Source: Escherichia phage 121/2022-2B. Taken from it: a DNA stretch of 64,000 nt. The notes below the pieces were generated by a model. The model ran no database searches and had not been told where the DNA came from. It worked only from the letters and a program-made list of their open reading frames with translations. Positions 33,303 to 41,550 of this stretch are shown piece by piece (the first letter of the stretch is position 1; the number at the start of each line of letters is the position of its first letter). The translations under genes and the position numbers were made by a program. Location: the sequence record OR958571.1. The stretch is one strand, 5' to 3'.

Positions 33303-33776
33303 TTATTTGAACGATTTAACGTACTGAATAGAACCTTTACTATTCACGAAAGCGATTTTACCATTTTTGTTATACATGGTAGCAGTACGTTGATAGCCAT
33401 AAGTTTGTTTACCAGATTGATAACCAACTAATGCAAAATTATCTTCACCCATTTTATTCTGTTTAGCGCGAATGCGTTCATGGCCATGTGCCATAAGAAC
33501 CTTAGCATCACCAGTTGCAATGGATCGACGAGTTTTTTCATCTTCAACTGTATTAACAAAGTCGTCAAATGAATCAAATTTAGCATGAGATTTATTATAT
33601 AGTTTTCCATCTACTGCATAATTATATCCTTGTACATCCATCTCAACTTCTGTACCATCATCCAGTACAGCAGTGATTTTCTGTCCTTTTTTAAATTTCA
33701 AAAGATCAGTAAAAGATTCAGCAATAATTTGAGAATTAATAGCTGCTTCAGTAATAAATTCTTGATATGTTTTCAT
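33303..33776 (-). CDS. internal protein (injected capsid protein) with capsid-targeting leader
   Basis: 157 aa; N-terminus MKTYQEFITEA matches the T4 internal-protein capsid-targeting sequence; sits next to e like ipIII. Confidence 0.65.
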   Translation of the reverse strand: MKTYQEFITEAAINSQIIAESFTDLLKFKKGQKITAVLDDGTEVEMDVQGYNYAVDGKLYNKSHAKFDSFDDFVNTVEDEKTRRSIATGDAKVLMAHGHERIRAKQNKMGEDNFALVGYQSGKQTYGYQRTATMYNKNGKIAFVNSKGSIQYVKSFK

Positions 33777-33836
33777 GTGTATCCTTTAAATGTAAATATT
33801 TTAATTAATAATTTATCTCTTCAAGTAACTGTGAAT

Positions 33837-33866
33837 ATACTATCACAATTCTAGGAGAAAGTAAAT
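33837..33866 (-). promoter_or_regulatory. early-type promoter variant upstream of the internal protein gene
   Basis: ATTTACT, 17-bp spacer, TGATAGTAT. Confidence 0.4.
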
Positions 33867-33870
33867 AACT

Positions 33871-34365
33871 TTATAGATTTTTATACGCGTCCCAAGTGCC
33901 AGTTCTAAACGTAGCAATGACTCGTTTTGCGCGGTTAGGTGTTTGATTATACCATCTACTTTTAGCTAAGTTAACTGCTGCTTCATCCCAGCGTTTTTGT
34001 TGAAGCATACGTAAAGAGTTAGTAAATCCTGCTACGCCAGTTTCTCCCATTTGGAAGACCATATTAATCAATGCACAACGACGAATCGCATCAAGAGAAT
34101 CATAAACCGGTTTTAATTTAGCATTTCTCAGAATTCCGCGAACAGCAGCATCAACATCCTGATTAAAGAGTTTTTCAGCCTCGTCTTTGGTAATTATGCC
34201 ATTGCAATTACGTCCAATAGCTTTATCTAATTCAGATTTAGCAACACTAAGCGATGGACTTTTGGTAAGCAAATGACCAATGCCAATAGTATAATAGCCT
34301 TCTGTGTCTTTATAGATTTTAAGTCTAAGACCTTCATCTATACGTAGCATTTCAAATATATTCAT
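33871..34365 (-). CDS. e: endolysin (T4 lysozyme)
   Basis: 164 aa [33 protein letters not shown]...; matches T4 lysozyme essentially completely as recalled. Confidence 0.95.
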
Positions 34366-34378
34366 AATACCTCCTAAG

Positions 34379-34399
34379 TATTTATAGAAGGTATTTATA
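34379..34399 (-). promoter_or_regulatory. two tandem late promoters for gene e
   Basis: Minus strand carries TATAAATA twice (plus coordinates 34379-34386 and 34392-34399), 13 and 26 nt upstream of the e ATG. Confidence 0.65.
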
Positions 34400-34402
34400 A
34401 AA

Positions 34403-34858
34403 TTAAAAGAGGTTGTTCATTATTCGGTAAAGTGAAGGACCCATCACATATTGCCACTGAGTACGAGGAATAAGAGCAAAAGCGTCCATCTCTGGAATCA
34501 TAACACCATCTTTATTTTCAAAATAAGACTCGCAATGGCAATTTCTAAACATCTCATGCTCTACTGGAATCGTATAATAAAACAACTGTAGGTCTTTATT
34601 ACTAGAATATTTAAATACACCTAGGTCTTCTAGAAGGTCTGGATTATAATTGTTAAAACCAGTCTCTTCTGAGCATTCTCTTCGTGCTGCATCTAGTGCG
34701 CTTAAATCAGAATTTTCTACACGGCCCTTTGGAATATCCCAGCGATGTGCCATCATTCCAGGTTTACGAGAACCAGTAACTCGTCCCATAAATAAATCTT
34801 TATCTTCTGTCATAAAGATAATACCAGCTGATAATGTTTTCATTTTAATTTCCTGCAT
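34403..34858 (-). CDS. nudE: Nudix hydrolase NudE
   Basis: 151 aa; Nudix box [23 protein letters not shown]. Confidence 0.8.
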
Positions 34859-35328
34859 TCAGTGATAAAATTATTTAAATTTTGAGCATATTTCTTTTCA
34901 TCAAAAATCTTTTGTTGTCTGCGCATCCGCCATGGCATTTCAATGAACATGTACCATATTCCTGATAATATTGATGCTGTAAAAATATTAACAAGTATGG
35001 TTAAAAGAATCCAATCTCCTATTCTGTCCATTGGATTTTTTATAAAAAAGTAAAATACGAATGATGACACAGGAAGACTAATGATATACCACAGAATCAT
35101 AATCTTATCTGTGAACCATTCAGCATTCGTTAACTTAGCACGACCATTATGAATACACACGAATTTATCATCTGTTACCATAGATGGCTTAACTGCTTGA
35201 TATCCCATTCTAAACTCCCTAATTAATCGTTTCTTTGTATCTTCAGAACAGCCGCTCCAGTCAACTCTATCAACTGAAATGCCATCATCCCCATCATCTA
35301 AATCATACCAGCGAGTTTTTAAAATCAT
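34840..35328 (-). CDS. hypothetical membrane protein
   Basis: 162 aa with two hydrophobic helices. Confidence 0.45.
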   Translation of the reverse strand: MILKTRWYDLDDGDDGISVDRVDWSGCSEDTKKRLIREFRMGYQAVKPSMVTDDKFVCIHNGRAKLTNAEWFTDKIMILWYIISLPVSSFVFYFFIKNPMDRIGDWILLTILVNIFTASILSGIWYMFIEMPWRMRRQQKIFDEKKYAQNLNNFITECRKLK

Positions 35329-35687
35329 TTAATTTTCCTACAATCACTCACAAACTCTTCCATTGATTCTTTTTCAATATAAGACATGTAGCTATTATAT
35401 TCTTTTAATTGTATTTTGTAATCTTTTTTTCTTTGCCAATTTATTTTAAAATTATCATAATGAAAATATAACATGGTACCAAAGAATGAAAATAATGAAA
35501 TAATTTTAGTATAGTGAAGTTCACTCCAAACTTCTATTATATTTACTGTGCCGTCAATGTTTAAAATAAGACAGTCAATTAACAATCCAAAAAGACTACC
35601 AGCAAGAGCTGCAGCCAACGCCACAGCAAAAATTAAAAATGACTCAGGAAGCGAATATTTGACTTTATTTAGTTTTGGCTTTTGCAT
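35325..35687 (-). CDS. hypothetical membrane protein
   Basis: 120 aa, two hydrophobic helices. Confidence 0.45.
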   Translation of the reverse strand: MQKPKLNKVKYSLPESFLIFAVALAAALAGSLFGLLIDCLILNIDGTVNIIEVWSELHYTKIISLFSFFGTMLYFHYDNFKINWQRKKDYKIQLKEYNSYMSYIEKESMEEFVSDCRKIK

Positions 35688-40027: not shown

Positions 40028-40321
40028 TTACCATTTATGATAATACATATTTACGATGCATTCAAGACCCAAAGGATTCTTGAAAATATCATATTCAAGA
40101 GGACCTTTTTCTGTTTTAATAAAGAAATCAAAATTTACTGTATTAAATTTACGGTCTTCCTTTACTAATTTAACTTGAGAAGATGAACGGTCAGTGTAAA
40201 CCTTTTCAACTTCAAAATATGTTAAAATGCCATAATCATCAATCAAGGCTTTAGCTGCTTCTTGATCATATTTATATCCATTTTCAATGGATGATACTTT
40301 CGCATAAAGAATCATTATCAA
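40028..40321 (-). CDS. hypothetical protein
   Basis: 97-aa ORF between the tRNA array and the internal-protein genes. Confidence 0.45.
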   Translation of the reverse strand: MIMILYAKVSSIENGYKYDQEAAKALIDDYGILTYFEVEKVYTDRSSSQVKLVKEDRKFNTVNFDFFIKTEKGPLEYDIFKNPLGLECIVNMYYHKW

Positions 40322-40698
40322 CCTTCATCAACAATAGTGTGCGTATTGGCATTTACAATTTGCCACCAATCAAAGCGATTAGAACCATACATCGGTTTGT
40401 TTTCATTTTCTTTGATAATATCACGGAGTTCATCTTCGGTAGCGGCTTTCGCTATTAAATCAGCATATCCACCACGAGGATAATAATTATCACCTGCAAA
40501 AAGTAAAAAGTTTGGTTTAATGTTATTGAACTCTTCAAGAGTAATAACTTTTCCTGACGGTTGAACAATCTCTACATATTTATACCCCAATTTTTGGGCA
40601 GCATCTACTGCTTCAAGCAAAGTATCATGAGCCCATCCAATTTGACAGCCTGGCTTTTCAGATGGATTAGCCTGATAATCCGCGTACACTTTATACAT
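40318..40698 (-). CDS. hypothetical protein (start set to ATG at 40698 with AAGGTG RBS)
   Basis: Track ORF 40318..40737. Confidence 0.45.
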   Translation of the reverse strand: MYKVYADYQANPSEKPGCQIGWAHDTLLEAVDAAQKLGYKYVEIVQPSGKVITLEEFNNIKPNFLLFAGDNYYPRGGYADLIAKAATEDELRDIIKENENKPMYGSNRFDWWQIVNANTHTIVDEG

Positions 40699-40699
40699 T

Positions 40700-40885
40700 C
40701 TATTCACCTTTAGAAATTTTATCCATAACGATAGCAATTAAACCAATTAAAAATGCTACTACAAGTGAAAAAACATTTTCTGCTGTAGTCAATAATCCGC
40801 ATATAAATCCAACAAACATTGAAAAACTAAAAGCGGAAGCAGAAATTGCAATAGCAACATTTCGAATTAATTCACAACGTTTCAT
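40700..40885 (-). CDS. hypothetical small membrane protein
   Basis: 61 aa with two hydrophobic segments; preceded by an early promoter cassette. Confidence 0.45.
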   Translation of the reverse strand: MKRCELIRNVAIAISASAFSFSMFVGFICGLLTTAENVFSLVVAFLIGLIAIVMDKISKGE

Positions 40886-40913
40886 TTTATTCTCCTCAGT
40901 AGTTGATAGGGTA

Positions 40914-40943
40914 ATAGTATCACTACCCTATCTAAAAGTAAAC
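40914..40943 (-). promoter_or_regulatory. T4-type early promoter (gatagggtaatagtatcac cassette family); -10 enclosed by inverted repeat gataggg/ccctatc
   Basis: GTTTACT, 17-bp spacer, TGATACTAT. Confidence 0.55.
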
Positions 40944-41195
40944 TCATTTTTTACGAAAAATTGATTTATTTTCTGCTGCCCATTTTTCAATAACTGCAGC
41001 CGGACCAGTAACAACAATTTTATCACCGTAATCTTCTGCGGCGAGTTGACCGAAATTATCTAATGCATCACGAAGAACTCCATGAGGCATTTCACCCATT
41101 TTATCTTTCTTGCCAGTGTAAATAAACTCAACTTTTACATCAGAAGATTCAGCGATAAATTCTTGATACGTTTTCATTTTATTCTCCAATTTCAC
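40944..41195 (-). CDS. internal-protein-like small protein with capsid-targeting leader
   Basis: 83 aa; N-terminus MKTYQEFIAES is a near-exact capsid-targeting sequence. Confidence 0.6.
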   Translation of the reverse strand: MKLENKMKTYQEFIAESSDVKVEFIYTGKKDKMGEMPHGVLRDALDNFGQLAAEDYGDKIVVTGPAAVIEKWAAENKSIFRKK

Positions 41196-41215
41196 ATTTG
41201 TTTTGATAGGGTAAT

Positions 41216-41244
41216 AGTATCACTACTAAAACCCCGTGTAAACA
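41216..41244 (-). promoter_or_regulatory. T4-type early promoter (same cassette family)
   Basis: GTTTACA, 16-bp spacer, TGATACTAT. Confidence 0.55.
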
Positions 41245-41262
41245 ACTTTGTGAAATTGTTTA

Positions 41263-41550
41263 TTACAAAAGATTTTTAGCAATAATCTTGAGATGTGCTG
41301 CAGAAATATGTTTAGCTTTAAACAACGCAGTTTCTTCGGCAGGAGAGATAACGATTGTAGCACCATCCTTTTTAGCAGACCACCCATCACCTAGGTAAAC
41401 AGTACCTTTGATTTCTTCGCCATCAACCAGACTAATCATTGGTTTACCTTCTCGTCCTTTATTTGCTTTAATAACTTCAGAAGTAAGAGTAGCTTCGGTA
41501 ATGGTAGAAAACCGGGTAGTTGTAGAAGTAAATTCTTTAAATGTTTTCAT
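41263..41550 (-). CDS. ipI: internal protein I-like (IPI position adjacent to 57B)
   Basis: 95 aa, the length of T4 IPI precursor; N-terminus MKTFKEFTSTT is a diverged capsid-targeting leader. Confidence 0.55.
   Translation of the reverse strand: MKTFKEFTSTTTRFSTITEATLTSEVIKANKGREGKPMISLVDGEEIKGTVYLGDGWSAKKDGATIVISPAEETALFKAKHISAAHLKIIAKNLL

Follow-up and report, generated by a model that had tools for sequence, protein, structure and literature searches.

Does Escherichia phage 121/2022-2B encode a capsid-targeted protein in addition to the internal proteins (IPs) already described in T-even phages? The question is raised by four small open reading frames (ORFs) in a stretch of 64,000 nucleotides (nt) of this phage (sequence record OR958571.1; hereafter, the window), each of which begins with a variant of the leader of the T4 internal proteins, i.e. 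the capsid-targeting sequence (CTS). In T4, this leader docks the protein on the scaffolding core of the prohead, and the prohead protease gp21 cuts it after L/I-x-E. The mature internal protein remains packed with the DNA in the head and is injected together with it. Three of the four ORFs encode known internal proteins (IPI, Ip6 and Ip4), which the two canonical IP loci carry as exchangeable cassettes. The fourth, at 38237-38710, belongs to the diverged family phrog_2280 and lies at a third site; we infer that it is likely to be an additional capsid-targeted protein. It is the only uncharacterised ORF of the four and its locus lies outside the two canonical ones, a point that an earlier interpretation of the same DNA (the sequence-only reading) had missed. 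This ORF is probably an overlooked member of the internal-protein class, the remainder of the picture being mostly known biology.

Four leaders at three loci

The window belongs to a Tequatrovirus genome. The region matches more than 1100 phage records, nearly all of them of the T4 type, and the best relatives are Tequatrovirus genomes with about 95-97% identity over 10 kb. From 30 to 44 kb, the minus strand has the same gene order as T4: vs.8, an ip gene, e, nudE, e.2 to e.8, a cluster of 10 tRNA genes, trna.2 to trna.4, ip genes, 57B, 57A and gene 1. We searched the six-frame translation of the window for the leader motif MK[STA][YF]x[EQ]F. Exactly 4 matches were found, all at ORF starts, against a mean of 0.015 (maximum 1) in 200 shuffles. 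The four ORFs of the sequence-only reading are thus all present on the minus strand where it had placed them, with the start of the third moved to 41177. The three loci that it had distinguished were also recovered: e to vs.8 (Ip4), rnaC/tRNA to e.8 (38237-38710) and 57B to trna.4 (IPI and Ip6). Moreover, the mature parts are mutually unrelated, as it had claimed, with no pairwise BLASTP similarity (best E-value of 0.39 over 7 residues).

Amber-suppressor mutagenesis of the IPIII leader, as summarised in PMC9026906, assigns residues 4 and 7 to targeting and residues 8 and 10 to processing, and the gp21 cleavage motif is given as L/I-x-E. The targeting determinants are present in all four leaders (Y4/F7 in Ip4, Ip6 and the 38237-38710 ORF; F4/F7 in IPI). 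In addition, each leader ends in a putative cleavage site made of L/I-x-E and a small residue: ITE/A in Ip4, LNE/A twice in the 38237-38710 ORF, IAE/S in Ip6 and ITE/A at residue 19 in IPI. A canonical IP locus with early-promoter/stem-loop flanks was found for Ip4, Ip6 and IPI, and not for 38237-38710. Such a location is a habit of the internal-protein family as described in PMC2839356, and no mechanistic requirement.

For Ip1, Ip2 and Ip3, inhibition of three different GmrSD type IV restriction enzymes, one per protein, has been published (PMC12373910). It is therefore already on record that injected proteins with nothing but a leader in common disarm one restriction enzyme apiece. The sequence-only reading had taken each divergent body for a candidate anti-defence effector, which was right in kind and mostly known already. 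The profile searches that it had proposed return PF11634 for IPI, PF24183 for Ip4, phrog_8111 for Ip6 and phrog_2280 ('unknown function') for 38237-38710. The identity to characterised internal proteins that it had set against its own proposal was reached for IPI, whose mature form IPI* does not differ from the T4 protein; Ip6 shares 97% of its residues with Bas37_0260, and Ip4 falls in a named family. Only 38237-38710 may be new.

A diverged family with a conserved leader

The candidate fourth internal protein (38237-38710, minus strand) has 157 residues and is hereafter called type A of phrog_2280. Its leader, MKSYTQFLNE, is followed by AVLNE and then by A, giving two L-N-E-A sites, the second five residues on. 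All four positions defined by mutagenesis are present (Y4, F7, L8 and E10). The predicted mature protein has about 142-147 residues and an isoelectric point (pI) of about 9.5, and an extra L-K-E site lies inside it, at residue 108. The protein matches phrog_2280 over the full length of the profile (E = 4e-60); nothing scored above the curated cut-off in Pfam and NCBIfam, and a PDB sequence search gave no significant match. The AlphaFold2 model (predicted local distance difference test, pLDDT, of 75) is all-helical, with a disordered leader, a three-helix N-domain, a disordered linker rich in Lys, Pro and Ala, and then a long helical hairpin.

The family is small, with 13 clusters at E-values up to 1e-3 among 1.84 billion representatives, and spans phages of Escherichia, Shigella, Salmonella, Yersinia and Klebsiella. 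Using tblastn, type A was found in 511 phage records (Bas39 and e11/2 are among the phages with this gene); among the matches listed, it is a 'hypothetical protein', a 'Phage protein' or is left without annotation. Two other body types occupy the same locus in other phages: type B (187 residues; RB14ORF136; MKTYAEFLTE/A) and type C (205 residues; MKTYNEFLNE/S), and some phages carry types A and B in tandem. Together, the three types reach 677 phage records. By BLASTP, types B and C resemble type A in the leader only. Both of them and a Klebsiella phage homologue match phrog_2280 over essentially the full profile (E from 1e-53 to 6e-60). As types A, B and C all match this profile over essentially its whole length, they form one diverged family. 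The leader pattern (an aromatic residue at position 4, F7, L/V8 and E10) is kept in members that are about 40% identical or that are found by profile search only, e.g. MKFKEFLAE/A, MLKFNEFLAE/G, MKSFSSFLNE/G and MINFSDFLNE/G. That four functional leader positions are kept while the bodies diverge argues for selection on the leader.

Tequatrovirus, Klebsiella phages and more distant T4-type contigs all have the gene downstream of tRNA genes. The Klebsiella phage homologue, about 50% identical, stands directly after a hairpin and the tRNA genes, and an e.8-based scan of IMG/VR returned 9 loci. T4 has no phrog_2280 gene at this site, where a gap of 284 nt separates e.8 from rnaC.

Published HIDEN-SEQ transposon data are available for phage Bas37 of the corresponding preprint, which locus tags and taxids identify as KarlGJung (MZ501089). 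The type A gene of this phage, bas37_0244, whose product is 98% identical to that of 38237-38710, is non-essential (29 of 34 sites hit), as are bas37_0260 (Ip6) and bas37_0261 (Ip5, absent from the window). The tandem type B paralogue bas37_0243 was scored 'Essential', with 1 of its 48 sites hit, and its neighbours, including type A and e.8, are non-essential. Because the genes downstream of bas37_0243 are non-essential, a polar effect is unlikely. The text of the HIDEN-SEQ paper does not mention this essential gene, which provides a ready genetic handle on the family. The type B gene lies at 1029-1592 in the extracted Bas37 locus, and its equivalent at 5600-6163 in the extracted RB14 locus. 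Separately, sodium dodecyl sulphate-polyacrylamide gel electrophoresis of virions of phage HY01, in which a type A gene is present, gave five major bands, of which one was assigned by matrix-assisted laser desorption/ionization to an unnamed 'hypothetical protein' (PMC5201272). This is a lead only, with Ip4 and the phrog_2280 protein as candidates for the band.

A probable late cassette and its empty site in T4

The 38237-38710 gene is carried by a cassette of 557 nt composed of a terminator hairpin, the octamer TATAAATA, the ORF and a second terminator hairpin. The octamer (38749-38756, minus strand) corresponds to the T4 late-promoter consensus and starts 46 nt upstream of the ATG at 38710. 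The hairpins are part of a 36-nt direct repeat, whose two copies are 94% identical and 557 nt apart. The upstream copy (38754-38789, minus strand) forms an intrinsic-terminator hairpin with a T-run (stem 38763-38786) and marks the left edge of the cassette; the downstream copy (38197-38232, minus strand; hairpin stem 38209-38226) lies just past the stop codon and marks the right edge. T4 has a single copy of the hairpin, whose left flank is that of the upstream copy and whose right flank is that of the downstream copy. T4 thus has precisely the empty site that would be expected after recombination between the repeats. Furthermore, an exact TATAAATA recurs 36-48 nt upstream of the type A and type C orthologues and of the Klebsiella phage homologue. 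A longer version of the ORF, of 216 residues from a TTG start (38237-38887), was rejected as an artefact: it runs through the terminator hairpin into the alignment with the end of T4 rnaC.

IP genes are stated to be absent from sites of T-even genomes outside the two canonical loci (PMC2839356), and Silas et al. 2025 also describe two loci, for T4's own three Ips (PMC12373910). Our literature search found no paper that names the gene between the tRNAs and e.8 an internal protein; Repoila 1994 and Comeau 2007 were outside its scope, and priority is uncertain. The 38237-38710 cassette shares with the classical T-even IP cassettes, as summarised in PMC2839356, the CTS leader, the L-x-E/A site, the small size and the basic character of the product. 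Like them, it is non-essential in Bas37, variably present among phages and bounded by repeats. Unlike them, it occupies a third locus (from rnaC/tRNA to e.8), and where the classical cassettes have early-promoter and stem-loop repeats, it shows a late-promoter consensus and terminator-hairpin repeats. It also represents a single diverged family that is syntenic across genera, whereas the classical internal proteins are a set of unrelated bodies, and one phrog_2280 paralogue, in contrast to the classical proteins, is essential in Bas37. The cassette further resembles the early promoter-stem-loop (PeSL) cassettes of T4-type phages (PMC2839356, PMC4122927), in which a single gene is likewise bracketed by repeated regulatory stem-loops and presence or absence is explained by recombination between the repeats. 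The PeSL element, however, consists of an early sigma-70-like promoter and a GC-rich stem-loop, whereas the repeat around 38237-38710 is a terminator hairpin with the octamer after the upstream copy only.

Packaged protein, assembly component or relic

According to the explanation that we prefer, 38237-38710 would be a late transcription unit by itself, situated immediately downstream of the tRNA/rnaC cluster, and the cassette would be gained and lost through recombination between the two hairpin repeats, T4 representing the empty state. Cleavage by gp21 is predicted after E10 and/or E15, which would leave a mature N-terminus at A11 (AVLNEASSTEIQAVAK) or A16 (ASSTEIQAVAK); the head would then contain a basic, helical product of about 15.5-16 kDa. 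Once packaged, this mature protein could act against host defence, organise the head DNA or help head assembly. What we propose on packaging, cleavage, injection and function is drawn from sequence features, homology, synteny and distribution. Packaging through the leader has a good chance of being correct, and the predicted structure, in which a disordered leader would precede the folded helical body, was counted in its favour. A specific role as an anti-defence effector, as the sequence-only reading supposed, is possible but doubtful. It is only one of several possibilities for a family that is conserved in position across genera and has a paralogue essential in Bas37.

A number of observations weigh against an additional internal protein at this site. 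The gene lies outside both canonical IP loci, with a late-promoter consensus, and early-promoter stem-loop repeats of the ipI/ip6 type are absent there. The octamer TATAAATA alone is not above chance in the AT-rich window (12 found, 10.7 expected), and we therefore rely on its conserved position in orthologues; moreover, type B has no exact TATAAATA within 90 nt and has GATAAATA. For phrog_2280, the literature yielded neither virion proteomics nor data on N-terminal sequencing or injection. The family is also far less variable in position than the classical internal proteins, and this steadiness, together with the essential type B gene of Bas37, makes a poor fit to a dispensable anti-restriction factor. 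Even among the named proteins, ip4-10 gave no reproducible inhibition when tested against a panel of GmrSD variants (Silas et al. 2025, PMC12373910), and Ip4 is thus still without a known target.

The same genetic data lead to an alternative in which the leader does target the protein to the core, where it would serve in assembly, be part of the core, assist the scaffold or organise the DNA, and would not be an injected anti-defence effector. The essential score of bas37_0243, for which a polar effect is unlikely, speaks for it, as do the dedicated late-promoter consensus, such as structural genes have, the extra L-K-E site at residue 108 and a synteny kept across genera, unlike that of the hypervariable IP cassettes. 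The modelled all-helical fold with its long hairpin and Lys/Pro/Ala-rich linker, and the pI of about 9.5, would also suit such a protein. T4, however, assembles normally without this family, and type A is non-essential in Bas37. Furthermore, about 135 records (by subtraction) have ipIII without any phrog_2280 gene, which indicates that the family is dispensable in some backgrounds. We consider this alternative unlikely yet far from negligible. With type A non-essential and type B essential, the HIDEN-SEQ scores leave an assembly or DNA-organising role open beside anti-defence. Another possibility, that phrog_2280 replaces IPIII as the bulk basic internal protein where ipII and ipIII are missing, is suggested by the window, which has phrog_2280 and neither ipII nor ipIII, by T4, which shows the reverse, and by the basic character of both proteins. 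Co-occurrence was estimated with a fusion-query tblastn, in which phrog_2280 gave 677 records (677 places) and the addition of ipIII brought these to 812 records (938 places). About 126 of the approximately 261 ipIII records also carry phrog_2280; the two are not mutually exclusive, and a simple swap is therefore very improbable.

The leader itself could instead be a recombination relic among ip-type gene starts, borne by an ordinary cytoplasmic late protein that is not packaged. Recombination at conserved 5' regions does reshuffle IP genes (PMC2839356). The gene also stands away from the canonical loci, and none of the databases gives it a virion-protein label. Against this, the four functional positions persist in distant homologues with diverged bodies, all three body types at the locus keep the leader, and the structure prediction shows a disordered leader that can be separated from the fold. 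A relic is thus improbable, and a leader that serves for packaging remains our preferred explanation.

Beyond this single gene, phrog_2280 could constitute a third class of capsid-targeted proteins in T4-type phages, i.e. tRNA-adjacent late cassettes bounded by terminators, in one or two copies in most Tequatrovirus genomes and also in related genera, with at least one paralogue essential in Bas37. We hold this broader proposal to be plausible, a little short of probable. The class would have been overlooked because T4 itself lacks it, and ip catalogues built on the two loci of T4 probably miss a family of 677 phage records. If these proteins enter the head and are injected, most T-even phages deliver a component without counterpart in T4, and its role would go beyond the blocking of type IV restriction. 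Both anti-defence and head-assembly screens should include this family.

The three known internal proteins

Among phage proteins, it is the internal proteins that host immunity encounters first, and the targets known for them (GmrSD variants, McrBC) contribute to the host range. The cargo list of this phage comprises IPI* (CT596-type GmrSD), Ip6 (McrBC) and Ip4, plus the candidate 38237-38710. Packaging and injection are established in the literature for T4 IPI (PMC12373910) and would extend to Ip4 and Ip6 by homology.

The ORF at 41263-41550 (minus strand) is T4 IPI. It encodes 95 residues, with a 19-residue propeptide ending in I-T-E followed by A, and matches PF11634 (IPI_T4) over residues 20-95 and the whole 76-position profile (E = 7e-54; 180 bits for a cut-off of 25). 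Residues 22-95 are 100% identical to T4, and the mature 76-residue IPI* is identical to T4 IPI*, which is injected and inhibits GmrSD, a type IV restriction enzyme of E. coli CT596 (PMC12373910). The two proteins agree in length, in having the I-T-E/A site after residue 19 and in their locus, which is flanked by 57B and trna.4. Over the full 95 residues the identity is 97.9%, the only differences being two propeptide substitutions (PV to RF at residues 13-14). Unlike in T4, the locus is shared with a second ip gene, ip6; about 20 records match this pair over the full query.

Ip6 (40944-41177, minus strand) has 77 residues, with the leader MKTYQEFIAE followed by S and a mature part of 67 residues. 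Its likely start is the ATG at 41177, which is preceded by GGAGAATAAA as a good ribosome-binding site, and related phages annotate the same coding sequence of 234 nt; the GTG at 41195 is a less likely start. The protein matches phrog_8111 ('internal virion protein'; E = 5e-52) and is annotated as ipVI in phage GiZh. It has the same length and the same place beside trna.4 as Bas37_0260, with 75 of 77 residues identical (97%); the two conservative substitutions (SS vs. TA) come right after the cleavage site. Deletion of bas37_0260 makes the phage specifically sensitive to McrBC, and an N-terminal packaging signal was noted (bioRxiv 10.1101/2025.11.20.689424). Ip6 is the orthologue of this McrBC inhibitor, and its putative function is carried over from this 2025 preprint.

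Ip4 (33303-33776, minus strand) has 157 residues, with the leader MKTYQEFITE followed by A and a predicted mature part of 147 residues (pI 9.1). It matches PF24183 (DUF7412) over residues 1-157 (E = 6e-96; 319 bits for a cut-off of 27) and phrog_3155 ('internal virion protein'; E = 6e-102), and is annotated as Ip4 in RB14 and ipIV in GiZh. It matches Ip4 of T2, RB14 and RB70 over the full length and at the same locus between e and vs.8, with no notable difference.

On the minus strand, ipI and ip6 are bracketed by an early-promoter-like element (GTTTAC, spacer, TACTAT) that includes a stem-loop and is present three times. The first (41563-41628; repeat families D1 and D3) lies upstream of ipI, the second (41196-41261) between ipI and ip6, and a third, shorter copy (40903-40943) between ip6 and trna.4. 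Such elements were tied to IP shuffling by earlier authors (PMC2839356). A further CTS-bearing ORF of 105 residues (MKTYQEFIAE/S), without counterpart in the window, was observed in phage teqsoen (1789-2106 of the extracted locus), and lies between denV and Ip4 in some relatives. As it falls in phrog_3966 ('unknown function'), PHROGs under-annotates other ip genes too.

denV and neighbouring genes

No tblastn match to denV, ipII or ipIII was found anywhere in the window. The sequence-only reading had been correct in reporting that denV is missing, but this absence is an ordinary polymorphism of the phage group. The arrangement e-Ip4-vs.8 without denV is present in at least 305 phage records (over at least 80% of a 1351-nt query), including RB3, RB14 and RB27, and in relatives that have denV, this gene lies between e and the ip genes. 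T2-like phages classically display a v-minus phenotype, which the absence of denV in the window fits.

Beside the cassette, the stretch 38790-39100 (minus strand) has a GC content of 43%, against about 35% elsewhere, and aligns with the T4 small stable RNAs rnaC and rnaD; Rfam 15 returned tRNAs only and no family for this stretch. Just upstream of the lysozyme gene e, two exact TATAAATA octamers lie 13 nt apart (34379-34399, minus strand), which fits late promoters for e. The gene vs.8 (32623-33300, minus strand) aligns from 33273 to the T4 protein of 219 residues with 96% identity. An in-frame stop precedes the ATG at 33162, leaving an ORF of 179 residues only, and the annotations of relatives are also shorter (540, 504 and 570 nt). 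The tRNA cluster (39103-39930, minus strand) holds 10 genes, including Asn and Tyr, which are not in T4. The T4 cluster has 8 tRNA genes and a segB insert, and no tblastn hit to the homing endonuclease segB was obtained in the cluster of the window. Finally, the tRNA called Met(CAT) by ARAGORN in this cluster is annotated as Ile in relatives.

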